From: Shigella phage vB_SboM_Phaginator
Length of the DNA stretch: 64,000 nt
Sequence record: OL615012
Direction: 5' to 3' (one strand)
The translations under genes were made by a program, and so were the position numbers. The notes under the pieces were generated by a model. The model saw nothing but the letters and a program-made list of their open reading frames with translations. It was not told the DNA's origin and searched no databases. Shown in pieces: positions 19,708 through 36,995 of this stretch (its first letter is position 1; each line of letters starts with the position of its first letter).

Positions 19708-20721
19708 TCATTTATAATAACTTCGGTGGTTTTCAAGATAGACCTTCTCAAGGAAGTCATCCCAGAAACTCATGTCTACTTTTTGCTGCATACCGTTCTT
19801 AGAAGCTTCAGTAGATGCTGCTTCTACTTGATCGACCACATCTTCCAAAAACTCTTGAACCGTTTTAAATGGATGCTTACCCAACTTCACGTCAAGAATA
19901 AATGGAGCATCTTTGAGTGGATAAACCAAGTCACCAGTTTTGTAAATTTCCAATAGTTGGAGTCCACCACGGCAAGCATGACTCAGAGCTTTCCAGTCAA
20001 TACCTTCATTGGCTTCGGCCTTACGAGCACGTTCACCATATTCAGCATCTAATTTGTTCAGTGACTGCTTAAGCTCAATAAGAGAAAGCGTTGTCTGATA
20101 TTTACGACCCAACACAGTGTAGAACGTTTGTGGGCCTGTTTTCTCATGATTATGGAACACCCATTCACAGAATTCGTTTTCTGGAAGACGATGCTTAATA
20201 TCTTCAACTTTAGTGCGACGCTGCTTAATGGAACCGTCTTCTTGGTAATCAACCCATTGCTCGGGGATTTGATTAACTACTTTCAATACATCACGTAATG
20301 CAGCCAAACGAGAACCCTTGACACCGTATTTAGAAGCTTGCTTGCGGACATATCCTAAATAGGATTTCATGTTAGTCGTATAAAAACGAGAACGGTTGTC
20401 TTGAATAAACTTCCACACATCAGGCAAATCAGATTTAACCACTAGTTCAGGTGGAGTGTGAAGCATATCCAATGCTACAGTTTCACCATCTGCTGCTAAT
20501 TTAAAGAAATATTTAAGACTGTATAGTTCATGGTCAATATCATCTTTAGTGTTTTTAGATGATGTGTTGTTAGTGTTTTTACTCATGTGCTCTTTAACGT
20601 TTCCGATAAGAATATCACGAGCAGGAGGAACAAAGATTTCTTTAAAATCTACATCAGATTCTGGAGTAGAAGTTCCATAAAGATGACTACCAAAATAGCT
20701 TTTCATTACTGTTTTCATCAT
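19708..20721 (-). CDS. Pol-beta superfamily nucleotidyltransferase-fold protein, function unknown
   Basis: 337 aa; N-terminal GS-x9-DVD motif (FGSHLYGTSTPESDVDF) with a downstream acidic residue (DMLH). Confidence 0.65.
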   Translation of the reverse strand: MMKTVMKSYFGSHLYGTSTPESDVDFKEIFVPPARDILIGNVKEHMSKNTNNTSSKNTKDDIDHELYSLKYFFKLAADGETVALDMLHTPPELVVKSDLPDVWKFIQDNRSRFYTTNMKSYLGYVRKQASKYGVKGSRLAALRDVLKVVNQIPEQWVDYQEDGSIKQRRTKVEDIKHRLPENEFCEWVFHNHEKTGPQTFYTVLGRKYQTTLSLIELKQSLNKLDAEYGERARKAEANEGIDWKALSHACRGGLQLLEIYKTGDLVYPLKDAPFILDVKLGKHPFKTVQEFLEDVVDQVEAASTEASKNGMQQKVDMSFWDDFLEKVYLENHRSYYK

Positions 20722-21179
20722 TCAGCCTTATATTCAATAACAGGACATACTTTAGCTTTACGAGCTTTTAAAAATTCAACGATAATCGATTTCTTGGGTT
20801 GAATAGGAGGTAAACCTTTATACGCTCTATCAATATTTTCTACGTGTAAAGCATAGTCCTTTTTCCATTTATAATCTTTATATTTTTCACGCAGTTGTGC
20901 AGGAATAACAAATGAACCGATAATAAGTAAAACAACCAAAAGCGCAAGTATAAATGCTGATGGAAGAAGAGTCCATAAACTACCGAAAATAAGCCAACGT
21001 TGTAGGCTTTCTGCACAAATAATTGTTAGCCCTACGAGTATAGTACACCCAAAAATAGAAACGAAAAATGTAGGAATGGCAATAGACCAAAAATATGCGC
21101 ATAGTGTCTTAGGTCGTTGCCATTCATCGTTAAACAATTTGAATAATTTATAGTGCCAAGAGTTTTCATTAATAATCAT
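20718..21179 (-). CDS. Hypothetical multi-pass membrane protein
   Basis: 153 aa with several hydrophobic helices; stop overlaps NTase start. Confidence 0.55.
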   Translation of the reverse strand: MIINENSWHYKLFKLFNDEWQRPKTLCAYFWSIAIPTFFVSIFGCTILVGLTIICAESLQRWLIFGSLWTLLPSAFILALLVVLLIIGSFVIPAQLREKYKDYKWKKDYALHVENIDRAYKGLPPIQPKKSIIVEFLKARKAKVCPVIEYKAE

Positions 21180-21181
21180 AA

Positions 21182-21703
21182 TTATCCTTTCATTGAAGGC
21201 GTAACGGTTGTTAAATACTTAATCATCGCTTCAGCTTCTGATTTTGATAATGAAATTTCTCCATTGTTTTGACGAATAGAAATAAAATCCGGATGACGGT
21301 CACCACCAGCTTTTAAAACACACATATAAGTATCAGTTTCATCTTCAATATTTGAAATGATTGAAGCAGTTCCACATGAATGCGGTTTTTGATAAATCAA
21401 TACAGCTTTTCTTCCGCCATTTGACTGTTCATAAACTTTTAATACATCAAACAAATCACTTCTTTTATCAATAGCTAAAATGTTATTTTCATCTTCAATG
21501 TTAAATCCTTCGGATACTTCATAAAGTGTTACCCATAAATCACCGATGTCAATAACAGCATTTACTTTTCCACGGCTTTCAAGAGTATGACAAATTTTCT
21601 TGATTTCGTCATAACTCATTTTAATAATATCATCTCCTTGACTAAGAAAGATGTCATTTTTAAATTCAACACGAATTAAACCGCTTTCACTTGAAATAAA
21701 CAT
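21182..21703 (-). CDS. Hypothetical protein (tandem paralog A)
   Basis: 173 aa; shares ...GFNIE(D/S)E...(I/L)... and C-terminal ...YL(T/D)(T/S)V(T/I)P(S/T)M motifs with neighbour. Confidence 0.55.
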   Translation of the reverse strand: MFISSESGLIRVEFKNDIFLSQGDDIIKMSYDEIKKICHTLESRGKVNAVIDIGDLWVTLYEVSEGFNIEDENNILAIDKRSDLFDVLKVYEQSNGGRKAVLIYQKPHSCGTASIISNIEDETDTYMCVLKAGGDRHPDFISIRQNNGEISLSKSEAEAMIKYLTTVTPSMKG

Positions 21704-21709
21704 ATTTCC

Positions 21710-22255
21710 TCACTTTGAAATCATAGTTGGAATAACAGAATCAAGATAAGTCTTTAGTGCAATAGCTTCGTCTTTGGTAAATGTGACAATATGCGATCGA
21801 AAATCATCAATTTGACGAATAGTTAAGACATCTCCATCTTCATAACATTTTGATACGTTTAAAACAGTTTCATCATTCTGATTGCAAGCGTTAGTAATAA
21901 TAGCATTGCAATTTTTAAACCATTTTAAACTATGTTTTCTTTCATTAGAATAATAAAAATATTTAATCTTAGTTATAAAATTATCCCAATTATTAATTGA
22001 TAAGCATATTGACTCGCTTTCAATATTAAATCCTGGGCATAAAGAATAGAAATGAATTTTATGCTCATCATTAATGCTTACAATTTTATCAGTATAAGAA
22101 TTTTCAATTTGGGTTAAACGAACAATTTCGTTAGGCGTAAAATATAGCATATCGTCTTCTTGTGTCAAACGATACATATTATTTACTTTTTCTATAGCCA
22201 ATTCACCAAAAAGTGAACTAACTTCTAATACTAATCGTTTCGCCTCACTCATCAC
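21710..22255 (-). CDS. Hypothetical protein (tandem paralog B)
   Basis: 181 aa; paralogous to 21182..21703. Confidence 0.55.
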   Translation of the reverse strand: MMSEAKRLVLEVSSLFGELAIEKVNNMYRLTQEDDMLYFTPNEIVRLTQIENSYTDKIVSINDEHKIHFYSLCPGFNIESESICLSINNWDNFITKIKYFYYSNERKHSLKWFKNCNAIITNACNQNDETVLNVSKCYEDGDVLTIRQIDDFRSHIVTFTKDEAIALKTYLDSVIPTMISK

Positions 22256-22387
22256 TGTATACTCCTCTGAATCATATCAATAATGTTGTTCACCAGATTA
22301 TAAGTAAACATTGGGTAATTATATTGAATCATCACATACACAACAAACAAAATTTTCATTCTCTTCTCCTTGACAGTTGACAAGATT

Positions 22388-22416
22388 ACTATACCATAAC
22401 CTTGCCAACTTGTAAA
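22388..22416 (-). promoter_or_regulatory. Early promoter
   Basis: Minus strand GTTTACA - 17 bp - TGgTATAGT. Confidence 0.6.
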
Positions 22417-22419
22417 CCA

Positions 22420-22593
22420 TTAAATGACGTTTTCAATAAAATTCTGAAGCTTTGTGTGAGCATCAACCATGATTTTCATTTCTTCCTTTGCGAAAGCTGT
22501 ACCTCTTTCCCGAGCAGAATACTCATAGTCAGAAACTGCATTAGCATATTCTTCAATTAGTTTCATTAAAAACATCTGCTTTTCAGTTTTCAT
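22420..22593 (-). CDS. Hypothetical small protein (57 aa)
   Basis: Manually read ORF MKTEKQMFLMKLIEEYANAVSDYEY...; below track cut-off. Confidence 0.3.
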   Translation of the reverse strand: MKTEKQMFLMKLIEEYANAVSDYEYSARERGTAFAKEEMKIMVDAHTKLQNFIENVI

Positions 22594-22777
22594 TATTCCA
22601 CCTAATCATTTCAAGATATTGAACTAACTTAGCTTTAGATTTATCCAAATCCTTTTTAGCTGCTTCTATACCGTCGTATGAATATCCTTCACAATGCTCA
22701 ACTGCTAATTGATATGAATCTATTTCAATATCACGTGCTAATTTAATGATTTTTTCAAACTGTTCGCGTGTTAGCAT
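22583..22777 (-). CDS. Hypothetical small protein
   Basis: ORF track 64 aa. Confidence 0.45.
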   Translation of the reverse strand: MLTREQFEKIIKLARDIEIDSYQLAVEHCEGYSYDGIEAAKKDLDKSKAKLVQYLEMIRWNNEN

Positions 22778-22779
22778 AC

Positions 22780-23019
22780 TTAAACTCTCGTATTATGATC
22801 GATAATTTCATCAAGAAACATATCTAACGCTTCTAAAGCATTATCAACTTTAGCTTCAAGTTCATCAATACCTTTATTTGCAATGCCTGACGAAAACCAA
22901 GCAAAGTCACTAAGTTCCTCATCTGCTTTACGAATTGAAGCCACTAATTCCTTGATTTTATCTGCTTGCTCTATACTAATCATTATTCCACCACATATGA
23001 AAGAGAGAATATTGCACAC
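22780..23019 (-). CDS. Hypothetical small protein
   Basis: ORF track 79 aa. Confidence 0.45.
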
Positions 23020-23171
23020 GCCATGTGAGTTGCAACTTCATCACACATATTATAACGTTTCTTAAGAAGTTCTACAAGTTCTTCACTAGTAACTTCATCC
23101 ATGTTGACGAAAAAATCACCATTAATGATGACGTAGATATTTCCTTCTTGATTGAGTGCTTCAATTTTCAT
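22983..23171 (-). CDS. Hypothetical small protein
   Basis: Track ORF 22983..23216; start moved to MKIEALNQ (GGAG RBS), upstream part is promoter sequence. Confidence 0.45.
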
Positions 23172-23199
23172 GATGTTCTCCTCTTTATCCGATGGTTGT

Positions 23200-23228
23200 A
23201 TAGTACCACGGCTCAAACAGAAAGTAAA
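23200..23228 (-). promoter_or_regulatory. Early promoter (PeSL-type consensus)
   Basis: Minus strand GTTTACT - 17 bp - TGgTACTAT - ACAACCATC; terminator hairpin upstream. Confidence 0.6.
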
Positions 23229-23238
23229 CCGGTAAAAT

Positions 23239-23262
23239 GAAAAAAGTCTCCCGAAGGAGACT
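23239..23262 (-). terminator. Rho-independent terminator
   Basis: Minus strand AGUCUCC-UUCG-GGAGACU followed by UUUUUU. Confidence 0.7.
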
Positions 23263-23266
23263 AATG

Positions 23267-23653
23267 TTATTCGAGGGAAAGAAGATACTTACTCTGGTAA
23301 AACATCCCAGTAATATCATCTATCGTGCTTTGAATGGCTGGAGGCATTTCTTTATAAATGCTGTTAGATTGGTCTAGTATGCGATCAATCATTTTAATTG
23401 TGTCGGTAGGAAGTTTACTGGCATCTGGAATTGAAGGTGTGTATTTTCTACCAGAATACCCCAAATATTGCTCACCAAATTTATCAATCAAATCTGGCAA
23501 CTCGGAGAAAATAAAATCGTATGCTTTGTGTCTAGCATAACTTTTAGTTTCAAAATGTGCAGAATGAAAATAAGCTTGTGCAGCCATTAATAAACCTAAG
23601 TATTCATCTGCCTTTGAAGGTTTTCCACTTTGTGAAAAGTCGCTGAATTTCAT
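23267..23653 (-). CDS. Hypothetical protein
   Basis: ORF track 128 aa; followed by UUCG-loop terminator. Confidence 0.5.
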
Positions 23654-23943
23654 TCAGTCTCCAATTTAATGTTCATAATTCTAGCGTATGATTGTGCCAT
23701 CTCCGCGCCTCGTTCTATACATTCAAAATCAGAAGAGCACGGGTCATTTTTATAGGTCGTTCTCATAAAACTATAGAACTGTTCAGATGATTCTACGCTT
23801 TTATTTTCAAAAAGCATATAAACATGTCTAATACCAGATTCCATAAATTTATCAAAATGAGGATCGACATTCGCTTCAATCGATGGAGATAAAACAAATG
23901 ACAATCCTAGCATGGCAAATAGTGCCGTTGCTTTTAAGGCCAT
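23650..23943 (-). CDS. rI: Lysis inhibition regulator RI (antiholin)
   Basis: 97 aa; N-terminal signal-anchor MALKATALFAMLGLSFVLSPS; position upstream of tk as in T4. Confidence 0.75.
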   Translation of the reverse strand: MALKATALFAMLGLSFVLSPSIEANVDPHFDKFMESGIRHVYMLFENKSVESSEQFYSFMRTTYKNDPCSSDFECIERGAEMAQSYARIMNIKLETE

Positions 23944-23955
23944 AAAGGCCTCCTA

Positions 23956-24168
23956 TCATTTTTGTCCTGTATTTACTTTATGCCGATGCACGGCCTTAAC
24001 TTTATCAAGGTATTTTTCAAAATTTCGCAATCTAGTATAGTCTGCCGGAGATTGGTTGAGTGATACTTCTCGACGCAAAGCTGAAATGATATTTCCAACT
24101 TCCCTACGAATTTCATCTAATTGAAGCACAGTAAGATTGCGAAGTTGCTTTTCAGTTAATTGTAGCAT
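23956..24168 (-). CDS. Hypothetical protein (rI.1 position)
   Basis: ORF track 70 aa. Confidence 0.45.
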
Positions 24169-24210
24169 ATATACCCCTTTAGTTAGATAAACCTATTTAT
24201 AACTTTTGCA

Positions 24211-24792
24211 CTAACCGAGCTTTTTAGTTAATTCATTCCAATGTTTTCTGCACAAAGAAACATAAATTTCATCACCAATACAGATTTGATTACCTTCTTT
24301 AACTGGTGTTCCATCTTCCATTAATCGAGCTGTCATAATCGCTTTTTTGCCGCAATGACAGACTGCTTTCAGTTCAATAAGTTTATCTGCAATCGCTAAA
24401 AGTTCTTTAGAACCTTCAAACAATTTTCCAGCGAAATCAGTCCTTAATCCATAAGCCATAACAGGAACATTATATGTATCAACAATTCGGCTCAATTGAT
24501 GCACTTGTTCAGTTTTTAAAAACTGAGCTTCATCTACAAATACGCAATGAATATCTTTTTGTGCTTCGGCCCATTTATAGAATTCGAAAATGTCCATATC
24601 ATCTGTAATAATATTCGCTTCCTGCTTAATTCCAATGCGAGAAACGACTTCACAGACAGAATCGCGAGTATCAATAGCAGGCTTAAGAACTAATACACCC
24701 ATTCCACGTTCTTTATAATTATGTGCAGCAGTCAAAAGAGAAGCAGATTTTCCAGCATTCATTGCTGCATAAGTAAAAATTAAACTCGCCAT
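24211..24792 (-). CDS. tk: Thymidine kinase
   Basis: 193 aa; P-loop AAMNAGKS and C-terminal zinc-binding Cys pairs; T4 Tk length. Confidence 0.9.
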   Translation of the reverse strand: MASLIFTYAAMNAGKSASLLTAAHNYKERGMGVLVLKPAIDTRDSVCEVVSRIGIKQEANIITDDMDIFEFYKWAEAQKDIHCVFVDEAQFLKTEQVHQLSRIVDTYNVPVMAYGLRTDFAGKLFEGSKELLAIADKLIELKAVCHCGKKAIMTARLMEDGTPVKEGNQICIGDEIYVSLCRKHWNELTKKLG

Positions 24793-24801
24793 ATCACCTT
24801 C

Positions 24802-24987
24802 TTAAAGCGTATTCACATAAGCTATTAATTCGTTTTCTTTCTTATCAAACCGATCAGCAAATTCTTCCTGCTGTTCGGGAGATAGCGGGCCATATTCATC
24901 ATAAAAGGTGTTTGCTTCTGTATGCTCATCTAGAAGTTCATGGATAAGCTCAAACAATTTATCTTTTTGTTCTTTACTCAGACTCAT
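24802..24987 (-). CDS. Hypothetical small acidic protein
   Basis: ORF track 61 aa. Confidence 0.45.
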   Translation of the reverse strand: MSLSKEQKDKLFELIHELLDEHTEANTFYDEYGPLSPEQQEEFADRFDKKENELIAYVNTL

Positions 24988-25157
24988 ATATTAATTTCCA
25001 GGAGTTTTAAAATAATTCGCTTTTGCTTAAATATTTCCATAGTTAAATGACCAGTATCTTTTTGACCGATTCCAATGGCAAAACCTTTATTAACAGCGAG
25101 TTCAATTAAATTATCAAGCTCACGTAACACTTCGTATTGTAACTCAAAACTATTCAT
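24984..25157 (-). CDS. Hypothetical small protein (57 aa)
   Basis: Manually read ORF MNSFELQYEVLRELDNLIELAVNKGF...; ATGA overlaps at both ends. Confidence 0.35.
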   Translation of the reverse strand: MNSFELQYEVLRELDNLIELAVNKGFAIGIGQKDTGHLTMEIFKQKRIILKLLEINI

Positions 25158-25381
25158 TTTGGTTTACCTTCTTTAACGAAATCAGGATAAGGATAAAATC
25201 CCGAATAAAATCCTTCACCTTTATGATTGATGCATCCTTTATTAGAACAATAGCACCAATAATCGAAATCACAAGCCATTTCATCATTACATAAAGCAAA
25301 AACAACAGGCCATTTACACTTTTCGCAATGGGCATTTTTAAGAATACTAGTTTGGCTCATAACCATGTAACCTTTAAGCAA
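25154..25381 (-). CDS. Hypothetical Cys-rich (putative zinc-binding) protein
   Basis: 75 aa with nine Cys incl. CEKC and CYC pairs. Confidence 0.45.
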   Translation of the reverse strand: MLKGYMVMSQTSILKNAHCEKCKWPVVFALCNDEMACDFDYWCYCSNKGCINHKGEGFYSGFYPYPDFVKEGKPK

Positions 25382-25569
25382 TATTCTTCTACATGTTGTT
25401 TACGACCTTTCTTATCAATAAAGGTATATTCAACGAATGTTCCAATGTAGTCTTTATCTACATCATGTGGACTATTAATTGGACATTTAGTACGGCAAAT
25501 GCGTTCCCATTGACGAATAATTTCCACTTTGTTTTTAGGATCAAACGGATGTGGGTAATGTACTTTCAT
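25357..25569 (-). CDS. Hypothetical protein
   Basis: ORF track 70 aa. Confidence 0.45.
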   Translation of the reverse strand: MKVHYPHPFDPKNKVEIIRQWERICRTKCPINSPHDVDKDYIGTFVEYTFIDKKGRKQHVEEYCLKVTWL

Positions 25570-26020
25570 AATCCACCACTATTAAATCAATATCAGGAGT
25601 AAACATGTCGATTAATTTAGAAACTTTATCCCAATCGCCGCCAGCAATACCACAACCTATGCGTGGAATGTAAATTATCGGTTTAAACAAAAGGGTTTCT
25701 GCCTGTAGATTTAATTCTATCATGCAGTTTACTAAAGCACCATAATCAAGATTAGGACCTGGTTCGTATTGCGTATACAAGTTATAACATATGCCAAAAC
25801 CATTAGGTTTATGTTTAAAAACAATAGACATATCACCGAGTTTTTCACGCGAACCATATTCAGTTGTGGTCTTATCTATTTCTAAAATTTTGGGATAGGC
25901 TCTTGCTAATTGACCAGCTACACCACTGCCCATTGTATGAAAACAATTGCACCCGTGCGCAATAATATTACCTTGAAGAAATAGGGCGACAATATCGCCC
26001 TTGATATATTTTACAATCAT
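25541..26020 (-). CDS. Macro-domain protein (DarG/TARG1-like ADP-ribose processing fold)
   Basis: 159 aa; motif HGCNCFHTMGSGVAGQL resembles the N-x-C...MG-x-G-x-A signature of TARG1/DarG-type macrodomains (recalled, not searched). Confidence 0.6.
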   Translation of the reverse strand: MIVKYIKGDIVALFLQGNIIAHGCNCFHTMGSGVAGQLARAYPKILEIDKTTTEYGSREKLGDMSIVFKHKPNGFGICYNLYTQYEPGPNLDYGALVNCMIELNLQAETLLFKPIIYIPRIGCGIAGGDWDKVSKLIDMFTPDIDLIVVDYESTLPTSV

Positions 26021-26364
26021 CTAGTACTCAATCCTCGATTATAAGAATCTACCAAACGGTCAACCATTGAATGACAAGCGGCTTTATCTTTCTCCTCCGC
26101 AACTGAACATTCTAAGGTATTCCACTTTTTAGCATATCGTTTTAATAATGTATCGTTTTTGTATCTGCTTGATTTATCTCTTTCTCCGTCTTTATATGCA
26201 TATATTAATTTCTGTGCAAATTCAGCTTGGCATGCTTTATTTTTCCCACAATAATCTGCCGCAGTGCGGTTTACATATTCTCTAATTTCAGTATATGATG
26301 TATCTGCTGACGCAGAAGCAGAAAATGAAATTAATCCTATACATAAAACCAAAATTTTAGTCAT
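26017..26364 (-). CDS. Hypothetical secreted protein
   Basis: 115 aa with N-terminal signal peptide MTKILVLCIGLISFSASASA. Confidence 0.5.
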   Translation of the reverse strand: MTKILVLCIGLISFSASASADTSYTEIREYVNRTAADYCGKNKACQAEFAQKLIYAYKDGERDKSSRYKNDTLLKRYAKKWNTLECSVAEEKDKAACHSMVDRLVDSYNRGLSTR

Positions 26365-26902
26365 TTACTATTTCCAAAAGTTTATTATTTTTAAGGTAAT
26401 TAGCCTTTTCTAGGACTTCAGAAGCATATTTAGAACCAGCTTTAACATTCCATCCCGAATTATAAGAGGATATTGCTTTTCTTATATCGCCCTTATGTAT
26501 ATTTAACCAATAAGAAAGTTCAATGTACGCCCAGGAAGCTGAATTGGATCGTTTATTCAACATTCTTTTTATTTCAGCATCGGTCATATTATAACCAAGT
26601 TCCTTAACTCTTGCTCGCATAGTAGGCAAATAATTTTGGAACATTCCGTAGGCGTGATGCTTTGGTTTAGATTTTAAATTAACTCCGCCAGAGCTTTCTT
26701 GCCATAAAATAGCAGCCATTATATGACCTAATCCGCTCTTGTGGATATTTTTGTGTGTTTTATATTTTCCATCCTTAGAAAATTGTTCCCCGAATTGATA
26801 CGCGTAACGCATGTTATCGAGTTGGACATTACTGAAAGTATGCTCGGAGCTATGTGCCATCATTGAAATGGCCAATAGACCAGCGAGTAGTGCTTTTCTC
26901 AT
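26357..26902 (-). CDS. Putative lytic transglycosylase-like periplasmic protein (vs.1-like)
   Basis: 181 aa; signal peptide plus ...LWQESSGG... motif typical of SLT-domain catalytic Glu region. Confidence 0.55.
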   Translation of the reverse strand: MRKALLAGLLAISMMAHSSEHTFSNVQLDNMRYAYQFGEQFSKDGKYKTHKNIHKSGLGHIMAAILWQESSGGVNLKSKPKHHAYGMFQNYLPTMRARVKELGYNMTDAEIKRMLNKRSNSASWAYIELSYWLNIHKGDIRKAISSYNSGWNVKAGSKYASEVLEKANYLKNNKLLEIVND

Positions 26903-26909
26903 GCTTACC

Positions 26910-27371
26910 TCATTGAGTTTTAATTACTGCTTTAGAAGCCTTTCCTGGTAAACGACGACTGTTGATAATTGCCATCCTACATTGAAGTGACGGGTCTTTG
27001 AACTTCTCATTAGGCTTACAAACTGTAAATCCAAGCCAAAGATTTCCATCTGTGATTTCTAAACGTCCAGGACGATATTCAACCCCATCAATAAAATCCT
27101 CGTCAATGTCAGGACGCGGAGGCATACTCAGGAATTCATTAACTTCTAAAACATGGTCTTTTATTTTATGGAATAATTCAAAAACATATGTCTCATCAAT
27201 CTCCCGTTGAATTGCACGATCAAGAAGATGTTGAGAATATTTTAGATGAAACGATGAGACCCCTGCTGCTTTTGATGCCTCACGAATCTCATTGTTAATT
27301 TGACGAAACTCCGACTCAAAGTGACGACGAAGCTTATTTCGACGGATAAAAACTTCTGTGTTGATAGTCAT
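26910..27371 (-). CDS. regB: Endoribonuclease RegB
   Basis: 153 aa, same length as T4 RegB; recalled sequence match; early promoter directly upstream. Confidence 0.75.
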   Translation of the reverse strand: MTINTEVFIRRNKLRRHFESEFRQINNEIREASKAAGVSSFHLKYSQHLLDRAIQREIDETYVFELFHKIKDHVLEVNEFLSMPPRPDIDEDFIDGVEYRPGRLEITDGNLWLGFTVCKPNEKFKDPSLQCRMAIINSRRLPGKASKAVIKTQ

Positions 27372-27398
27372 GTTATTCTCCTCTTAACTGATAGAAAA

Positions 27399-27427
27399 AT
27401 TATACCACAGTCAAGAGGAAAAGTAAA
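27399..27427 (-). promoter_or_regulatory. Early promoter upstream of regB
   Basis: Minus strand GTTTACT - 17 bp - TGgTATAAT. Confidence 0.6.
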
Positions 27428-27430
27428 CAA

Positions 27431-27751
27431 TTATTCTTTAAATCTAATCAATTTATTCATAGACTTTGAAACTTCTGCACGAACCTCATGTAGGTTTTTA
27501 AGCTGTTCAAGACGCTGCTCATAGTAAGCAATTTCATCTTCTTCGAGACAGTCCTGCGAATCTTCTTTAAGATAACGTGCATAGTCCTGGAAAGCTTTAC
27601 GGACTACTTCCTGGAAGTCATCAAGACTTTGAATTTTCTTAGGAGCAACAGATACACGACGAGGGGCAGTATAATACTCATAACCAAACCCTGCGCTTAA
27701 TTGAGCCATTAATATTTTTCCTCTGGTTGGAACACAGCACGACAAGCCCAC
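27431..27751 (-). CDS. Hypothetical protein (vs.3-vs.5 region)
   Basis: Track ORF 106 aa; probable start at internal [10 protein letters not shown] giving 92 aa. Confidence 0.45.
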
Positions 27752-28011
27752 ATACTGGCTTCTTTGAGTTTCGTTTTAGCAATAGTTAACTGATCGAGGC
27801 TTTCAGCATAATTCTTCGCGAATTCACAGTCTTCACAATTATCTAGTGCTTCCCAGAATTCATCATATAAAGCGTCAAAGATAAGTCCTAAACGAACTTC
27901 AGCGTCTTTGATAGCATTCACTTTACCGATTTTCTCTTCAGTATGTGGCTTATAACCCTTAATATCTTCAATCATATTTGACTTCCTCACCAGTACATAA
28001 ATCATATTCAA
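27709..28011 (-). CDS. Hypothetical protein at the vs.4 position (possible Acb2-like cyclic-nucleotide sponge)
   Basis: Track ORF 100 aa; second small ORF after regB, where T4 vs.4 lies; assignment by position only. Confidence 0.4.
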
Positions 28012-28189
28012 CTAAACGAATAGGTTCATGAATGCCATATCCTTGAACAGAAATTTCTGTCGTAGGATAAATTCCATCAATATCACCCATATTCCATGCT
28101 TCATTAAATTGTTGTTCGCCTGAATTACTAAACCATTCGGCGAAAGCATTTAGCACATCTTTAGAACCTTCAATAATTATCTTTGCCAT
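27968..28189 (-). CDS. Hypothetical protein
   Basis: ORF track 73 aa. Confidence 0.4.
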   Translation of the reverse strand: MAKIIIEGSKDVLNAFAEWFSNSGEQQFNEAWNMGDIDGIYPTTEISVQGYGIHEPIRLVEYDLCTGEEVKYD

Positions 28190-28551
28190 TACAAACTCTC
28201 AGTAAAGGTACGAGCGATAACGTCGCGCTGCTGTTCCGGAGTCAGAGAGTTAAAGCGAACTGCATAACCGGATACACGGATGGTCAGCTGCGGATATTTT
28301 TCCGGATGCTTAACTGCATCTTCCAGAGTTTCGCGACGCAGAACGTTAACGTTCAGGTGTTGACCACCTTCAATTTTAACTGTAGGCTGTGGTTCAATTT
28401 CAATTTCACGGGCATGCAAACCGTAGAAAATTTCTGGGTCTACAAAAGAGTCCTCTTTAAAGGTTTTAGAGACAATAATTCGTGCTTGAATACCATCTTC
28501 AAAATAAATAGTACCTTTGTGTGTGCCTTCAAGAATTTGATATGCTTTCAT
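28189..28551 (-). CDS. Autonomous glycyl-radical cofactor (GrcA/YfiD-like)
   Basis: 120 aa; C-terminal half ...[63 protein letters not shown] matches the E. coli GrcA glycyl-radical domain incl. RVSGY. Confidence 0.85.
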
Positions 28552-28558
28552 ATAAACC

Positions 28559-28939
28559 TCAATTAGAAAATAAATTTATCCAAGATTGTTCTTTAATTAA
28601 AAATGGCTCAGAATCATATGCCATTAAACTCTGTGTGATTAGTCCTTTAAAAGGCCCATCAATAAATTCCATGGTAAAATATGGAATTTTATTCATTAAC
28701 CGTGCATTAGGAGCCGTACACAAAACTCTGCATCCTTTGAATACGCCTTTTTGTAATTTGTATTGCTTGGGATAAAATTCGCTCAAAATGTTATTATTTG
28801 CTAAAATTTCAAAATGATTCACCAATTTATTTTTAATAGTTTTTGGCGAAAAATAAAGATATTCGAAAAGCTGAGTGTCTGTCATCATTGCATTCCGATT
28901 ATGAAAAACTGTGGACGAGTAATACCACCAATGCAGCAT
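28559..28939 (-). CDS. Hypothetical protein
   Basis: ORF track 126 aa. Confidence 0.45.
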
Positions 28940-29475
28940 TTACTATTGCAACAGTGGTGCACAGTTTCAATATGAATATCGTAAATTTTATCCATATCAG
29001 GAGATTTAACAGGCTCATCGATTATATACAAAATCCGCGAAAGCGATAAACCTCTGAACTTGCTACCTCTATTACCAACAAAACTACGGACAGAAACAGT
29101 AAATAAACGGAATCGAATATCATCATTAGAATAGCGTGAAAATTCTTTTTTAATGTGGCCCGCAGAAATTTTAGCGTAAGCTGAAGTATTAGAAAGAACA
29201 ATAACTGTTCCACCGTCATACAACCAATTAGCGGCAAAATTAGTTACTGCAGTTGATTTACCGGATTGACGTCCACCATCTAGTCGAAGTGTGCAGTATT
29301 CTTTAAATAAATGTGGCGAATCAGGTACATAAAATCCACTATTACAAATTTCTTCTACTCTAGCATCAGAATGGTGTGTAAAAGCATTCATCAGGGATAG
29401 ATAAGGACCAGTTAAAAATGTTCTCATTTTATTCTCTCTAAATTTGGGCCATTCCATGGCGCGTGAATTGTCCAT
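28885..29475 (-). CDS. Small P-loop NTPase, function unknown
   Basis: 196 aa; Walker A GGRQSGKST and Walker B-like ILYIIDEP; Cys cluster CCNSKCC. Confidence 0.55.
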   Translation of the reverse strand: MDNSRAMEWPKFRENKMRTFLTGPYLSLMNAFTHHSDARVEEICNSGFYVPDSPHLFKEYCTLRLDGGRQSGKSTAVTNFAANWLYDGGTVIVLSNTSAYAKISAGHIKKEFSRYSNDDIRFRLFTVSVRSFVGNRGSKFRGLSLSRILYIIDEPVKSPDMDKIYDIHIETVHHCCNSKCCIGGITRPQFFIIGMQ

Positions 29476-29593
29476 TTCTGTATTTACCCATTACCGCACT
29501 TGGGCTCGACCTTATTACAGGTTGGCTGGAATCCCTCACAGAATCATGAGGTCCAGCTTGTTCCCATTTTATTTGAATGTAAATAGATCTGAG

Positions 29594-30172
29594 TTAGGAA
29601 TTACGGGCTGCATTAGCAACGGCGTAAGCGTACTGGACATTAGCGTCTTTAAACGTACCTTTAGAGGTATCTATTTCTGCCTTAAAGCCGCCTTTAGCCA
29701 TAACATCGGCAAATTCTTTACGGAAAGCCATTGCATCAAGACCTTTCCATGATGATTTATGCTTGGCAAATTCAAGACCAGCGTAGTTGACAGCCTTAGC
29801 TAATTTATTATCAATAACCCATTTACCGGCTTTAGGCACAAACTTCGGGCCTTTTTGTTTAGAGAACAGTTTTAAATTCCAGCGACGAAGGTCACTGTCG
29901 GCTTTAACAAAAGCTGCGTCTAAGTTACTAGCAACAACATCTTCAATATGAGCAAATTTAAGTCCGTCAACTTCAATATTTAGATCGTTACGCCAGCGAA
30001 GTCCTTCCCAAGCGAAGGCTTTAAAGTCGGAAGCCTTTGTAGCTAAGTACCGTTCAATAGGAGCTGTTTTAGGGTCAAAGCCGTTTCCCGATCGGTAGGT
30101 CCACTCATCTTTATTAATGCCTTTGGCCTTTACTATAGAAGCTTCGGCAATAAATTCTTGATAGGTTTTCAT
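29594..30172 (-). CDS. ipIII: Internal head protein with capsid targeting sequence (IPIII-like)
   Basis: 192 aa; N-terminus MKTYQEFIAEA, the T4 internal-protein capsid targeting sequence with LxE-type protease site; early promoter upstream. Confidence 0.65.
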   Translation of the reverse strand: MKTYQEFIAEASIVKAKGINKDEWTYRSGNGFDPKTAPIERYLATKASDFKAFAWEGLRWRNDLNIEVDGLKFAHIEDVVASNLDAAFVKADSDLRRWNLKLFSKQKGPKFVPKAGKWVIDNKLAKAVNYAGLEFAKHKSSWKGLDAMAFRKEFADVMAKGGFKAEIDTSKGTFKDANVQYAYAVANAARNS

Positions 30173-30200
30173 GTGTTTCCTTGTTTGTTTTGATAGAGTA

Positions 30201-30229
30201 ATTATACCATATTAATACTTAAGCGTAAA
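30201..30229 (-). promoter_or_regulatory. Early promoter upstream of ipIII-like gene
   Basis: Minus strand GTTTACG - 17 bp - TGgTATAAT. Confidence 0.6.
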
Positions 30230-30233
30230 CCGT

Positions 30234-30494
30234 TTAAGCTTTACCGCCAGAAATAATTCCGAAGTTGTTAAAATCATATCCAATATCGTCAACATCTACT
30301 TTAGGACTTGCTACAGCATAAGCAATTTCACTACGTTTTGCACAGGTGTTGATTTCTTTACCATCGCCACCTAAGAAAGAATACCCATTACGTTTTAATG
30401 AGCCAAAGTCTTCCGCATCACCAATGAAAGCTTTAACTTTAAATTTAGAACCTTTGGCATCTGCTTCAACGATAAATTCTTGATACATTTTCAT
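30234..30494 (-). CDS. Internal head protein with capsid targeting sequence (IPII-position)
   Basis: 86 aa; N-terminus MKMYQEFIVEA. Confidence 0.6.
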   Translation of the reverse strand: MKMYQEFIVEADAKGSKFKVKAFIGDAEDFGSLKRNGYSFLGGDGKEINTCAKRSEIAYAVASPKVDVDDIGYDFNNFGIISGGKA

Positions 30495-30631
30495 TTTTCC
30501 TTAGTAAATTGATTTACCAAAGTATTTGTACCAAGTCGGACGTTGATCAATTTTTTCATCTAAGCGTGCTTGATTTATCGCAATGGACGCTTCGGACGGG
30601 TCATAATTTCCTCCAAGTAGTTGATGAATGT

Positions 30632-30660
30632 ATAGTATCAAAACCCTTGGAGGAAGTAAA
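30632..30660 (-). promoter_or_regulatory. Early promoter upstream of ipII-position gene
   Basis: Minus strand GTTTACT - 17 bp - TGaTACTAT. Confidence 0.55.
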
Positions 30661-30662
30661 CA

Positions 30663-31465
<803 letters not shown>

Positions 31466-31921
31466 TTAAAAGAGGCTGTTCATTATTCGGTAAAGTGAAG
31501 GACCCATCACATATTGCCACTGAGTACGAGGAATAAGAGCAAAAGCATCCATCTCTGGAATCATAACACCATCTTTATTTTCAAAATAAGACTCGCAATG
31601 GCAATTTCTAAACATCTCATGCTCTACTGGAATCGTATAATAAAACAGCTGTAAGTCTTTATTACTAGAATATTTAAATACACCTAGGTCTTCTAGAAGG
31701 TCTGGATTATAATTGCTAAAACCGGTCTCTTCTAAGCATTCTCTTCGTGCTGCATCTAGTGCGCTCAAATCAGAATTTTCTACACGGCCTTTTGGAATAT
31801 CCCAGCGATGTGCCATCATTCCAGGCTTACGAGAACCAGTAACCCGTCCCATGAATAAATCTTTATCTTCTGTCATAAAGATAATACCAGCTGATAATGT
31901 TTTCATTTTAATTTCCTGCAT
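31466..31921 (-). CDS. nudE: Nudix hydrolase NudE
   Basis: Nudix box GRVENSDLSALDAARRECLEETGF; alternative start at 31906 (MKTLSAG) with in-codon AGGAAA RBS. Confidence 0.8.
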   Translation of the reverse strand: MQEIKMKTLSAGIIFMTEDKDLFMGRVTGSRKPGMMAHRWDIPKGRVENSDLSALDAARRECLEETGFSNYNPDLLEDLGVFKYSSNKDLQLFYYTIPVEHEMFRNCHCESYFENKDGVMIPEMDAFALIPRTQWQYVMGPSLYRIMNSLF

Positions 31922-32391
31922 TCGGTGATAAAATTATTTAAATTTTGAGTATATTTCTTTTCATCAAAAATCTTTTGCTGCCTACGTAAACGCCATGGCA
32001 TTTCAATGAACGTGTACCATATCCCAGATAATATTGCTGCTGTAAAAATATTAACAAGTATGGTTAAAATAATCCAATCTCCCGTTCTGTCTACTGGACT
32101 TTCTCCAAAGAAGCAAAATACAAATGATGTCACAGGAAAACTAATAATATACCACAGAATCATAATCTTATCTGTGAACCAATCAGTGTTCGTTAATTTA
32201 GCGCGACCATTATGAATACACACGAATTTATCATCTGTTGCAGTAGATGGCTTAACTGGTTGATATCCCATTCTAAACTCCCTAATCAGCAAATTTTTCA
32301 TATCTTCGGAACAGCCATTCCAGTCAACTCTATCAACTGGAATGCCATCATCCCCATCATCTAAATCATACCAGCGAGTTTTTAAAATCAT
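31903..32391 (-). CDS. Hypothetical membrane protein (paralog family, C-terminal ...ECRKLK)
   Basis: 162 aa; two hydrophobic helices. Confidence 0.5.
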   Translation of the reverse strand: MILKTRWYDLDDGDDGIPVDRVDWNGCSEDMKNLLIREFRMGYQPVKPSTATDDKFVCIHNGRAKLTNTDWFTDKIMILWYIISFPVTSFVFCFFGESPVDRTGDWIILTILVNIFTAAILSGIWYTFIEMPWRLRRQQKIFDEKKYTQNLNNFITECRKLK

Positions 32392-32750
32392 TTAATTTTC
32401 CTACAATCACTCACAAACTCTTCCATTGATTCTTTTTCAATATAAGACATGTAGCTATTATATTCTTTTAATTGTATTTTGTAATCTTTTTTTCTTTGCC
32501 AATTTATTTTAAAATTATCATAATGAAAATATAACATGATACCAAAGAATGAAAATAATGAAATAATTTTAGTATAGTGAAGTTCACTCCAAACTTCTAT
32601 TATATTTACTGTGCCGTCAATGTTTAAAATAAGACAGTCAATTAACAATCCAAAAAGACTACCCGCAAGAGCTGCAGCCAACGCCACAGCAAAAATTAAA
32701 AATGACTCAGAAAGCGAATATTTGACTTTATTTAGTTTTGGCTTTTGCAT
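32388..32750 (-). CDS. Hypothetical membrane protein (paralog family, C-terminal ...DCRKIK)
   Basis: 120 aa; hydrophobic helices. Confidence 0.5.
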   Translation of the reverse strand: MQKPKLNKVKYSLSESFLIFAVALAAALAGSLFGLLIDCLILNIDGTVNIIEVWSELHYTKIISLFSFFGIMLYFHYDNFKINWQRKKDYKIQLKEYNSYMSYIEKESMEEFVSDCRKIK

Positions 32751-33124
32751 CGTGATTCCTTAACAAATTTCATAATTTCATCAAATTCATACGCAGCAAG
32801 TTTAAGCTGGTGTTCCTTTTTAATCTTTTCACACTGTGCTTTCCAATCACGTACGCGTTTACGATAATGTCTTCCTTGATACCAGTATCCTACCCAATTT
32901 ACAGGTACTAATAAAAGTGGAACTATTAATGGAAGAATTAGCATTAATACCAGTATTTCGCCAGAATCAATATCAGTCATAACATCTAAAACACCTCCAA
33001 TAATCAATAGAATTACAAATGATATGAGTATAACAGGACCTATTAATACATCAGTAGAAATTATCTGACGCTTTAATTCATACTTTAAGGGTTTACTTGG
33101 AAGATACATTGATGGCTTTGACAT
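32732..33124 (-). CDS. Hypothetical membrane protein (paralog family, C-terminal ...KFVKESRCK)
   Basis: 130 aa; hydrophobic helices. Confidence 0.5.
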   Translation of the reverse strand: MSKPSMYLPSKPLKYELKRQIISTDVLIGPVILISFVILLIIGGVLDVMTDIDSGEILVLMLILPLIVPLLLVPVNWVGYWYQGRHYRKRVRDWKAQCEKIKKEHQLKLAAYEFDEIMKFVKESRCKSQN

Positions 33125-33701
33125 ATTCTCTGCATTCCTTCACAAATTTTTCTAGTAATAAATCGCTTTCAAAATTGGGATTTTCTACGAATTTATCAAA
33201 AAGATCATCAACAATAGTTAAGATATTCTTTTTACTAAGAATACGCTTATTTTCATGCTTAGTTTCAGAATCAACTATAAGAGTAAAGAAATATTTCTTG
33301 TCCCGAAATTTTACAGTAGTATCAATATAGAATAAATTTGACTTTTGTAAATTACGTTTAAACCATGCATCACTTAAACTATAAACGCCGAGATAATCAT
33401 AATCGTCGTTTAAATAACAAACCGTCCATTCAGGAGAAACAAAATCAGTAAATTCAACGTCAAAATCGCATGTTAATAAATGAATTGATTCAATGCTGTT
33501 AATAAGTATTCCAGGACGTATTAAAGACTTTTTACCTCTAGAAAATCTTCCAGAAAGACTTTCATCAGTTTCATATGAAGAACCCCAATAATAATTACGC
33601 CCTTCTGCCATACGTTTAAGAGCATTTAATAATTGGTCTGGAACATCAACTTGTCTTTGGAACTCTTCAAACATTGAATTGAAATCACTTTGCATTTTCA
33701 T
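33093..33701 (-). CDS. Hypothetical protein (shares ...KFVKECRE... motif with downstream paralogs)
   Basis: 202 aa. Confidence 0.5.
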   Translation of the reverse strand: MKMQSDFNSMFEEFQRQVDVPDQLLNALKRMAEGRNYYWGSSYETDESLSGRFSRGKKSLIRPGILINSIESIHLLTCDFDVEFTDFVSPEWTVCYLNDDYDYLGVYSLSDAWFKRNLQKSNLFYIDTTVKFRDKKYFFTLIVDSETKHENKRILSKKNILTIVDDLFDKFVENPNFESDLLLEKFVKECREYVKAINVSSK

Positions 33702-33721
33702 TCCTACTTACTCCAAGTAAT

Positions 33722-33737
33722 AGGGGCCGAAGCCCCT
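33722..33737 (-). other. Intercistronic RNA hairpin with UUCG tetraloop
   Basis: Minus strand AGGGGC-UUCG-GCCCCU just after stop of 33743..34336; no clear U-run. Confidence 0.4.
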
Positions 33738-33742
33738 TATCA

Positions 33743-34336
33743 TTATTTCAGAGAATTAATATATTCCTGAACATCGGCAGAGGTAGTTTCAACCCCAGAA
33801 ATATTGCCATTAAAGGTTTCAACTCGGGCAAGAGTATCTTCAATATCAACCTTAGTCAGTGCTGCAATTTCAACTACATCATCGGCAGTACTAATTCCAA
33901 GGGCATTTGCCGCACGAGTTTCACGAATATATTCCAATTTAACTGCAAGTTCTTGGCGAGCATCATCTAACTCAACTACTTTCTTGGCGATTTCAATTCG
34001 CATTTCAGCATAACCGTCAGCTTTAGTAGTCAACTGCTCAGCTGTTCGGCGATATAGTAAACCGAGTTTAGCATGCATTGTTACATCTTGACCTTCGGAA
34101 AGAAGTTTTCGAATTTCACGCTCTTTTGATTCGGCCTGTCGATTCTTTTCGATAACAAGTTCACGAATACGTTTTTCTTCATTAATAGATTTAATAGAAG
34201 CAGTTTTTAGATCTTTAATTTTATCAAGTAGTTTTGCTGCTGCAGCAGTATACTGTTCTTCAACAGATAGATTTTTAGCCATAGCAGAACCAAGTTTAGT
34301 GCGAATAAACTCAACAATTTTCTTCAGTGTGTTCAT
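33743..34336 (-). CDS. Hypothetical coiled-coil protein (weak PspA/IM30-like character)
   Basis: 197 aa, long helical heptad regions; resemblance to PspA family is by eye only. Confidence 0.5.
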
Positions 34337-34393
34337 AGTATTTCCTTAGATTGATACAATTAGATAATATCACGTTTTTAATAGATTGTAAAC

Positions 34394-34729
34394 TTATTCT
34401 TCGTCTATCTCATCGATAAAGACGTCAATGGCCTCGATAACGGCATCATTGATAGCCAATAAAGTAAAATCATCGTCAGTACCTTTATAAGATTCTGAAG
34501 CATTGATATATGCTTGATTGACGAGTTCCCAAGCCTTTTTAAAATAAGGAGTTTCATCATCAGGACAAATATCCCGCACACCTTCAAAGATACGATTGGC
34601 ATAATCTAACACCCATTGTACAGGCATGTTTTGAGAACGTTCGTTAAACTCTTTAAATTCCTTAGATTCAAAAAGCTCTTCAGGATAATAATTTCGATTA
34701 CAAAAAGCTTTACTAAAGTTACGTTTCAT
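34394..34729 (-). CDS. Hypothetical acidic protein
   Basis: ORF track 111 aa; early promoter upstream (34755-34783). Confidence 0.5.
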   Translation of the reverse strand: MKRNFSKAFCNRNYYPEELFESKEFKEFNERSQNMPVQWVLDYANRIFEGVRDICPDDETPYFKKAWELVNQAYINASESYKGTDDDFTLLAINDAVIEAIDVFIDEIDEE

Positions 34730-34754
34730 AATGTTCTCCTCAAGCTACAGGCTC

Positions 34755-34783
34755 ATAATATCTCAATCATGAGCCTGTGTAAA
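34755..34783 (-). promoter_or_regulatory. Early promoter overlapping a 9-bp inverted repeat
   Basis: Minus strand GTTTACA - 17 bp - TATTAT; spacer contains CAGGCTCAT...ATGAGCCTG hairpin. Confidence 0.55.
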
Positions 34784-34784
34784 C

Positions 34785-35060
34785 TTATTTCATATTATTG
34801 AAATATTCTTCTGCGATTTCGTCGTTATCATGGTAAACTTTAGAAGACAGTTTAACATAACCTTCAGCAGTGAACATGTTAATCACAACTTTTACAGTAT
34901 ACCACTGACCGTCTTCATTACCCATTACTGCGTAAGTTTCAAACATCGGATGGTCAGGACCGATAACTTTAATATCATTCACTGTACGACCGAAATCTTC
35001 TGAAACGCATTTCATAAAGAAGTTGAACAGTTCGCCGTAATTATCCATTTCATTCTCCAA
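34785..35060 (-). CDS. Hypothetical protein
   Basis: ORF track 91 aa; early promoter upstream (35092-35120). Confidence 0.5.
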   Translation of the reverse strand: MENEMDNYGELFNFFMKCVSEDFGRTVNDIKVIGPDHPMFETYAVMGNEDGQWYTVKVVINMFTAEGYVKLSSKVYHDNDEIAEEYFNNMK

Positions 35061-35091
35061 GTTGTTTTCTGTATCAGTAGTTGATAGTTGT

Positions 35092-35120
35092 ATAGTACCA
35101 TGGAAGAACAGGGATGTAAA
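35092..35120 (-). promoter_or_regulatory. Early promoter (PeSL-type consensus)
   Basis: Minus strand GTTTACA - 17 bp - TGgTACTAT - ACAACTATCAACT. Confidence 0.65.
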
Positions 35121-35251
35121 CAGTTTTGTGAAAAAATTTTTAAAAAGTTTTGGGGAATTCTAGGGCGGGAGGGGCAATTAAAAGATAGGATAATATATTA
35201 TAAAGGGTAGAAACTAAATGATGTCTAGAGAGGCCTGGAAAGGCCTAGATA

Positions 35252-35278
35252 CCAAAAAGCCCTATCATTTAGATAGGG
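35252..35278 (-). terminator. Rho-independent terminator after IP-like gene 35289..35855
   Basis: Minus strand CCCTATC-N5-GATAGGG hairpin followed by CUUUUUGG; second palindromic hairpin AGGCC...GGCCT at 35231-35246. Confidence 0.55.
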
Positions 35279-35288
35279 ATTTAAAATT

Positions 35289-35855
35289 TTATTTACCCAG
35301 TTTAGTTATTATAGCTTCGGCAGCAGCTTTTAGCTTAGATGCAGTGTTAATACGATTTTTAATTTCAGTATACGCATCGCCAAGAACATCAAGGCTATCT
35401 GAATAAACACTTACACTATTGCGTTCGCTATTTGAAATAGAACCTTTAGTTTTACGATCAAAATCGGTATACACGTCTTGAAGATCGCGTGCTGCCTTCT
35501 TTGCATCATCCAATGCATCAAGAGCTTTATTCAAAGCATTAACATATTTTTTAGTGTCAAACATATTCTTAGAAATTTTGACGGGTGCGCGTTCAGGAGT
35601 AGCTAAGGCAGATTTAGGAAGAACCTGTTTGCCAGATGCCAGTTTCTTAGAAATTTTAAAAAACGCTTTATTGAAATTATTTTCTTGACTCATCGTAAAA
35701 GAACTATTATCAATGTTATACATTTCAATAGCTTTAGCTTTCCACTTAAGAAAATCGCCACGGTCTTTTGGATCCAAGTGGAAGAATACTTTAGTAAGAT
35801 CTGCTTCAGATGGTAATTTTGCTGCTTCGGTTAAAAATTCGGCGTAGGTTTTCAT
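35289..35855 (-). CDS. Internal-protein-like protein with capsid targeting sequence
   Basis: 188 aa; N-terminus MKTYAEFLTEA; terminator hairpins downstream. Confidence 0.6.
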   Translation of the reverse strand: MKTYAEFLTEAAKLPSEADLTKVFFHLDPKDRGDFLKWKAKAIEMYNIDNSSFTMSQENNFNKAFFKISKKLASGKQVLPKSALATPERAPVKISKNMFDTKKYVNALNKALDALDDAKKAARDLQDVYTDFDRKTKGSISNSERNSVSVYSDSLDVLGDAYTEIKNRINTASKLKAAAEAIITKLGK

Positions 35856-35936
35856 TTAAAATCCTTGAAATAATTTATTGGTTATTAATTATTTATCACG
35901 TTGTTATATGTAACAGCATTCTCCGAGCGATTCAAA

Positions 35937-35966
35937 CTAAAAAGCCCCAACCTTTCTGTCGGGGCT
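35937..35966 (-). terminator. Rho-independent terminator (repeat copy A)
   Basis: Minus strand AGCCCCGAC-AGAAAGG-UUGGGGCU followed by UUUUUAG. Confidence 0.65.
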
Positions 35967-35971
35967 AAAAT
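35937..35971 (-). repeat. 31-bp direct repeat copy A (terminator-containing)
   Basis: ctaaaaagccccaacctttcTgtcggggctaa; matches copy B except one base. Confidence 0.8.
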
Positions 35972-35972
35972 G

Positions 35973-36446
35973 TTATTTAATTTGCTTAGCAGACCAAATG
36001 CGGTCTTTGATAATTTTTTGGATGTCTTCAACATATTCAAGAGAGTGAACATGTGGGTTATCTTTGAAACTATAAGCACGAGCTAGCTTTTGGCCTTCGG
36101 TTTTGATTACTAAAAGCTCTTTAAGGATAGCTTCATATTTGGAGATAATTCCTTTAACAATATTTTTCTCTTGTGCGACTTTAGGATCTGCTTTAGGAGC
36201 AGGTTTACCTGAAGCCTTTGCAAAAGCAGCTCCAGTAGCAACTAAACTTTTCCAGGCCATACTAACTGCATTCCCTGTAAATCCTTCCGCTTTCATATCG
36301 CGAGCAAATTGGAATCGTGATTCATCGGAAGCATCTTTATAGGAATATTTACCCGCGGCAATGGCAGCTTTTGCAACAGCTTGAATTTCGGTGCTAGATG
36401 CTTCATTTAACACCGCTTCATTTAAAAATTGAGCATATGATTTCAT
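35973..36446 (-). CDS. Internal-protein-like protein with capsid targeting sequence
   Basis: 157 aa; N-terminus MKSYAQFLNEAVLNEA; TATAAATA late promoter upstream; flanked by a 31-bp direct repeat. Confidence 0.6.
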   Translation of the reverse strand: MKSYAQFLNEAVLNEASSTEIQAVAKAAIAAGKYSYKDASDESRFQFARDMKAEGFTGNAVSMAWKSLVATGAAFAKASGKPAPKADPKVAQEKNIVKGIISKYEAILKELLVIKTEGQKLARAYSFKDNPHVHSLEYVEDIQKIIKDRIWSAKQIK

Positions 36447-36482
36447 CTTATTTCCTGTTTTAATTCGTGGTTTTAATATACT

Positions 36483-36525: not shown

Positions 36526-36526
36526 T

Positions 36527-36912: not shown

Positions 36913-36916
36913 TATT

Positions 36917-36991: not shown

Positions 36992-36995
36992 AAAT

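Follow-up and report, generated by a model that had tools for sequence, protein, structure and literature searches.

In the 64,000-nucleotide stretch of Shigella phage vB_SboM_Phaginator (sequence record OL615012) that was analyzed here, hereafter called the window, we find a gene that is very probably an orthologue of vs.6 of phage T4, encodes a spare part for pyruvate formate-lyase (PFL) and has had its 3' half overwritten by host grcA. The sequence comparisons show vs.6 to be an old phage gene with a conserved N-terminal region of its own, whose 3' half was replaced in Tequatrovirus through homologous recombination with the grcA gene of Escherichia coli. The features on which the analysis rests are listed in Table 1.

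Table 1. Positions in the window of vs.6, its parts, its neighbors and the anaerobic ribonucleotide reductase genes
Feature	Position	Strand	Evidence
vs.6 (Y06I) CDS, 120 aa, GrcA-type autonomous glycyl-radical cofactor	28189..28551	-	ORF list, T4 Vs.6 identity, Pfam, phrog_1209
vs.6 start codon ATG	28551..28549	-	ORF list and sequence
vs.6 stop codon TAA	28191..28189	-	ORF list and sequence
GAGG, predicted Shine-Dalgarno, 5 nt upstream of vs.6 ATG, overlapping the vs.7 TGA stop	28557..28560	-	read from sequence
Phage-type AT-rich 5' part, codons 1-59 and first base of codon 60	28374..28551	-	no BLASTN host match, GC3 0.22
Host-derived tract, 175-nt run identical to E. coli grcA, codon 60 base 2 to codon 118 base 2	28199..28373	-	longest exact run
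Last 10 nt of vs.6, with all three differences from E. coli grcA, overlapping the vs.5 translation-initiation region	28189..28198	-	
RVSGYAV glycyl-radical motif	28258..28278	-	sequence, GrcA and PflB alignments
G95 codon, predicted radical site, counterpart of GrcA G102 and PflB G734	28267..28269	-	alignments; G734 equivalence from PMC8683613
vs.5 homologue, 73 aa, adjoining vs.6 downstream, start overlapping the vs.6 stop	27968..28189	-	
ORF holding the vs.7 homologue, adjoining vs.6 upstream	28559..28939	-	
nrdD, anaerobic ribonucleotide reductase, the phage's other glycyl-radical protein	8767..10584	-	Pfam NRDD E=1.2e-171, Gly_radical E=1.2e-25
nrdG, radical-SAM activase of NrdD	8300..8770	-	Pfam Fer4_12 E=8.3e-49 and Radical_SAM

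The encoded protein shares 99% amino acid identity with T4 Vs.6 (NP_049730, to which RefSeq gives the name autonomous glycyl radical cofactor GrcA), the sole difference being R73 here and H73 in T4, and the phrog_1209 profile matches it over positions 1-121 of 121 (E=1.2e-62). The order vs.7-vs.6-vs.5-vs.4-vs.3-regB is common to the window and T4, and the wider gene order (tk, tk.1-4, vs, vs.1, regB, vs.3-vs.8, ipIII, e, nudE) equals that of the T4 reference record. By these measures the gene is identified as vs.6 of a T4-type phage (Tequatrovirus). A sequence-only reading of the same DNA had named a T4 homologue, Y06I, which turns out to be a direct orthologue by amino acid identity, synteny and phrog_1209 match. 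We take Y06I to be the UniProt-style name of T4 vs.6; a tblastn search for vs.6 gave 1600 places in 1591 phage records, and such a frequency of about one copy per record is consistent with Y06I being vs.6. Among phage records, that of Kha5h comes nearest to the gene (99.7% nucleotide identity). The gene is already known, having been recognized in the T4 genome, characterized biochemically in 2001 and routinely annotated since, and in itself it adds nothing new. Nolan et al. (2006) counted vs.6 as one of a small number of ORFs without known function that were conserved in all T4-like genomes compared.

A TAATG stop/start overlap joins vs.6 to vs.5, whose ATG occupies 28189..28187, and the T4-equivalent start of vs.7 is found at 28888 (109 aa, 99% identity). 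In a scan for promoters and terminators, the signal did not exceed the shuffled expectation. Several neighbors of vs.6 deserve a brief description. The vs.5 homologue matches phrog_1986 over its full length at 73 aa, and the annotated T4 Vs.5 (58 aa) aligns to the window in two frames, which suggests that the shortened variant is the T4 form. The vs.4 homologue, two genes downstream of vs.6 (27709..28011, minus strand), is 100% identical to T4 Vs.4 and carries a Pfam Acb2/Tad1 hairpin domain (E=1.1e-19), Acb2/Tad1 being a known family of anti-CBASS/Thoeris sponges. The vs.8 homologue (28888..29539, minus strand) aligns to T4 Vs.8 in two frames, covering residues 1-32 and 26-219, so that, compared with T4, it carries a frameshift or a restart; a weak P-loop/terminase-like PHROG match (E=3.9e-6) was seen as well. 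Further upstream, denV is reduced to a C-terminal remnant (30504..30629, minus strand) corresponding to residues 96-137 of T4 DenV at 74% identity, and three ORFs with internal-protein leaders of the MKTYQEFI type lie near it (29594..30172, 30234..30494 and 30663..30959).

Vs.6 is a stand-alone glycyl-radical domain protein of about 14 kDa, in which Gly_radical is the only Pfam domain (residues 61-101, E=2.8e-18). The GrcA structure 6OWR matches residues 22-120 (E=8.6e-42), and comparison with residues 697-759 of PflB gives E=5e-26 and approximately 78% amino acid identity. In a three-way alignment, residues 61-120 correspond to residues 68-127 of E. coli GrcA and are identical at 60 of 60 positions; the peptide [29 protein letters not shown], which the sequence-only reading had quoted, comprises residues 92-120. 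The domain, structure and identity results support the description of the product in that reading as a GrcA/YfiD-type autonomous glycyl-radical protein whose C-terminal half matches GrcA almost residue for residue. The similarity is also not limited to a short motif, given the extent of the 60/60 identity and of the 6OWR match.

The same reading had noted that the N-terminal part diverges from GrcA, and indeed this part aligns poorly. It is 7 residues shorter than its E. coli GrcA counterpart. A profile comparison of the N-termini of 11 phage and 14 host proteins by hhalign resulted in a probability of 95.4%, E=1.7e-8 and 27% identity over 60 columns, so that homology between the two N-termini appears remote but real. 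The phage homologues have in common the N-terminal pattern [14 protein letters not shown]...R..VSKT. We also considered a fusion of host DNA to a phage ORF of unrelated origin, and rejected it on account of the remote homology of the N-termini; because of that homology, the phage gene is better described as an anciently diverged relative of full-length grcA. On the NCBIfam GrcA equivalog model (TIGR04365; IPR011140), Vs.6 scores 153.3 bits over profile positions 25-126, compared with 234 bits for E. coli GrcA and a cut-off of 170 bits. It falls below the cut-off because its N-terminal half is divergent, and the most fitting place for it is a phage Vs.6 subfamily among the GrcA-like proteins.

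Andorfer et al. (2021; PMC8683613) describe E. coli YfiD and T4 Y06I as the only two validated spare-part proteins. As reported there with reference to Wagner et al. (2001), the PFL activating enzyme PFL-AE (PflA) installs a glycyl radical on YfiD or Y06I, and the complex with O2-cleaved PFL regains activity. The same paper states that residues 61-127 of YfiD adopt the fold of PFL residues 693-759, and that residues 1-60 are disordered yet important for activation and for binding to cleaved PFL (cPFL). Mapped from YfiD and PFL onto Vs.6, the radical is predicted to sit on G95 and the docking domain to span residues 61-120; the structured domain that docks into PFL is encoded by the 175-nt tract. 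The mechanism is reported as established for T4 Y06I, which is only one residue away from the protein in the window, and by analogy would apply here. Oxygen would cleave host PflB at the radical glycine G734, Vs.6 would bind the cleaved enzyme, host PflA would put a new radical on G95, and the complex would regain PFL activity as with GrcA/YfiD. T4-type infection stops host gene expression, which may be why the phage brings its own spare part. The gain to the phage might be that pyruvate-to-acetyl-CoA/formate fermentation and ATP supply are maintained under fluctuating oxygen. A literature search found no report of an in-vivo phenotype of a vs.6 mutant.

An improbable alternative is that Vs.6 acts as a modulator or decoy that, by competing with host GrcA or PflB for either PflA or the cleaved enzyme, redirects or dampens host fermentation. 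Such a role could be accommodated by the N-terminal 60 residues, which are conserved among phages and only 27% identical to host GrcA, and whose YfiD counterpart governs cPFL binding and activation according to PMC8683613. However, T4 Y06I is reported in that paper to restore PFL activity, and the C-terminal domain is under extreme purifying selection toward the functional host sequence, which suits a catalytic part better than an inhibitor. As a PFL spare part, phage Vs.6 may still differ from GrcA in recognition or regulation, because its divergent half is the one that is important for cPFL binding and activation in YfiD.

The sequence-only reading had also placed the gene alongside the anaerobic ribonucleotide reductase (RNR) genes. 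Both nrdD and nrdG are indeed present in the window according to Pfam, but they are located about 18 kb from vs.6 in a different gene cluster. A role in repairing NrdD, at which that reading had hinted, is without sequence support: BLASTP of Vs.6 against the NrdD of the window detected no significant similarity, the best alignment (E=2.6) being weak and away from the radical glycine. It is thus very unlikely that Vs.6 serves as a spare part or radical reservoir for phage NrdD under activation by phage NrdG, even though the phage encodes both proteins, Nolan et al. (2006) supposed that vs.6 might act in nucleotide metabolism, and Aeromonas phage AsFcp_4 (L092:1-3453) has a vs.6 homologue within the order nrdD-nrdG-vs.6-nrdC-nrdH, its start overlapping the nrdG stop. 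Besides the BLASTP result and the distance, the docking domain argues against this role by its 60/60 identity to host GrcA and its similarity of about 78% identity to the PflB C-terminus. A link of the vs.6 homologue to anaerobic RNR is plausible in the AsFcp_4 lineage and is not supported for this window. By its alignments, Vs.6 belongs with PFL-type rather than RNR-type spare parts.

At the DNA level, vs.6 is a mosaic. A megablast search with the gene matched grcA in 5426 of 5426 complete E. coli genomes, only over gene nucleotides 179-363 and at up to 98.4% identity, and in the alignment the 5' boundary of the match is sharp, at codons 60-61. In the last 183 nt, the differences from E. coli grcA are found at positions 173, 176 and 177, and the GAGAGT at the 3' end of vs.6 resembles the GAGAGT in unconverted phage copies. 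GC content rises to 0.50 in this stretch, compared with a window mean of 0.35. GC3 also increases, from 0.22 in the 5' half, which is within the 0.18-0.33 of the neighboring phage genes, to 0.45 in the 3' half, the same value as in E. coli grcA. The 5' half had no BLASTN match among 81 host grcA genes, and its aligned nucleotide identity to E. coli grcA is 54%. Host capture, which the sequence-only reading had proposed to detect by GC and codon usage, is therefore indicated by these measures for the 3' half but not for the 5' half. Of these hosts, E. coli has the grcA gene most similar to the 3' half (98.4%), ahead of an Escherichia sp. (96.7%) and Citrobacter amalonaticus (90.7%). E. coli pflB was rejected as the donor of the tract, its nucleotide identity being 78.7% versus 98.4% for grcA. 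Within positions 20001..45000 of the window, no sequence other than the tract has a match in every E. coli chromosome. The only other E. coli matches in this interval are a tRNA region (36993..37085) that matches tRNA-Tyr on an E. coli plasmid record at 91.5%, and matches at 80-90% somewhere in the interval in 258 further records; 264 of all matching places are on plasmids.

The tract is not peculiar to this phage. It is present at 95-99% identity to E. coli in 632 phage records, T4 and T2 included, and Tequatroviruses of the JK45 type show 94.5% identity to the E. coli grcA tract, for which an earlier replacement, a drift in the direction of AT or another Escherichia donor may be the reason. 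This number of independent records speaks against an assembly artefact. Convergent constraint at the nucleotide level could be considered in view of the extreme constraint on the amino acid sequence of the tract (61 of 61 positions identical when the stop is counted, even in phages without the tract). In Slopekvirus and Pseudotevenvirus, however, homologues with the identical 60 C-terminal residues have only 82.5% nucleotide identity to E. coli; over the 61 C-terminal codons, Slopekvirus differs from E. coli by 30 synonymous and no non-synonymous changes, with a longest exact run of 17 nt. Thus, protein constraint does not force nucleotide identity. Transfer from phage to host is countered by the presence of grcA in all 5426 E. 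coli genomes, its host-like codon composition and its host-like species divergence, and the direction is therefore from host to phage. Taken together, an origin of the tract by convergent constraint, artefact or phage-to-host transfer has very little chance of being correct, and replacement by host grcA remains the preferred explanation.

A second case is found in phages of Klebsiella. In Jiaodavirus (Klebsiella phage Mexia and others), the 5' halves of vs.6 are 72-74% identical to that of the window, and the 3' halves are 96.4% identical to Klebsiella pneumoniae grcA versus 87% to E. coli grcA by megablast. The match to K. pneumoniae includes an exact run of 101-140 nt and the Klebsiella-type residues L77 and E81, the E. 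coli-type residues at these two sites being E77 and K81. Over the last 183 nt, 20 sites distinguish E. coli grcA from K. pneumoniae grcA; the gene in the window has the E. coli base at all 20, whereas Mexia, Nispero and KPV15 agree with K. pneumoniae at 17-18 of them. In total, identity to the K. pneumoniae tract reaches 95-99% in 106 phage records. Moreover, the tracts of the E. coli and K. pneumoniae types share their starting codon and end 10-15 nt before the stop codon, as would be given by recombination confined to the sole stretch of adequate phage-host similarity. The phage-type end that is kept carries GAG(A/G)G upstream of vs.5, which is an annotated ribosome-binding site in Mexia. 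We therefore consider it very likely, from these sequence comparisons, that the PFL-docking half has been replaced from host to phage at least twice independently, once in Tequatrovirus and once in Jiaodavirus. In Klebsiella phage KPV15 (L099), the phage-type 5' half of vs.6 contains a frameshift and is annotated as two short CDSs, and the host-type 3' half is intact, with 98.2% identity to K. pneumoniae grcA.

Tequatroviruses from Yersinia, Serratia, Hafnia or Proteus keep the E. coli-type tract, and a Salmonella Jiaodavirus keeps the Klebsiella-type tract. Replacement thus appears to be rare and inherited by lineage instead of being continuously adjusted to each host. A third replacement in phages of K. 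oxytoca and Raoultella (PKO111 and Ra_O-2) was not supported: the closest gene is K. pneumoniae grcA at 87-91%, and in the host panel these phages are no closer to grcA of Klebsiella sp. or Raoultella. The vs.6 family itself is old and widespread, as tblastn detected it in several genera of Straboviridae, T5-like phages, Asteriusvirus and Aeromonas phages. In a survey that compared about 50 loci from IMG/VR with 83 host grcA genes, no further lineage exceeded 95% identity. Within that survey, a 19-kb contig (L129) shows 91% identity to Yersinia grcA and is perhaps no more than host DNA, and loci L169-L179 were rejected as spare parts because of their pflB/tdcE-like C-termini. Among Slopekvirus-like contigs of IMG/VR, L117 and L118 differ from L112-L114 at two host-specific residues, L..E (Klebsiella type) versus E..K (E. 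coli type), and all of these contigs have only about 83% nucleotide identity to any host; the residue split may be a trace of older host matching.

T4-like phages otherwise share almost no DNA with their hosts. One possible explanation, which we advance tentatively and hold to be somewhat less than an even bet, is that the docking half is now and then overwritten by grcA of the principal host of each lineage (E. coli for Tequatrovirus, K. pneumoniae for Jiaodavirus) and that the replacements have been retained as a match to host PFL and PflA, which would amount to host-tracking by gene conversion in T4-like phages. That the replacements are adaptive and not neutral, and that they are previously undescribed, is much less certain than the replacements themselves; a full-text literature search, which did not extend to key older papers, found no description of the host-identical tract or its Klebsiella counterpart. 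More generally, the presence of vs.6 together with nrdD and nrdG indicates that T4-type phages invest in the upkeep of host fermentation as well as in anaerobic dNTP synthesis. The mosaic offers a small and clean natural case of host-to-phage gene conversion limited to one functional module. The tract also serves as a dated sign that a given phage genus and host species have been in contact, and could be used to measure recombination between T4-type phages and host chromosomes.

Compared with known systems, the gene in the window is closest to T4 vs.6, which likewise encodes 120 aa, lies between vs.7 and vs.5 and has a host-identical 3' tract; T4 vs.6 differs by a few nucleotides, with two differences from E. 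coli grcA within the tract as against none here. E. coli GrcA (YfiD, 6OWR) resembles Vs.6 in size class, in its structured C-terminal domain and in the reported PflA-dependent rescue of O2-cleaved PFL. Its gene is located between ung and eamB in E. coli strain ER1709, whereas vs.6 belongs to a phage early-region cluster, and their N-terminal halves are about 27% identical. The C-terminal glycyl-radical domain of PflB (residues 693-759) is the piece that the spare part replaces, and Vs.6 has the same fold unit with the same [13 protein letters not shown] motif. The psbA/psbD mosaics of cyanophages are phage copies of host metabolic genes that carry host-derived patches acquired by intragenic recombination. 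The vs.6 mosaic involves another host, another phage group and another gene, and differs from these in that only the half fitting the host enzyme has been replaced and that its tract hardly differs from the host allele of today.
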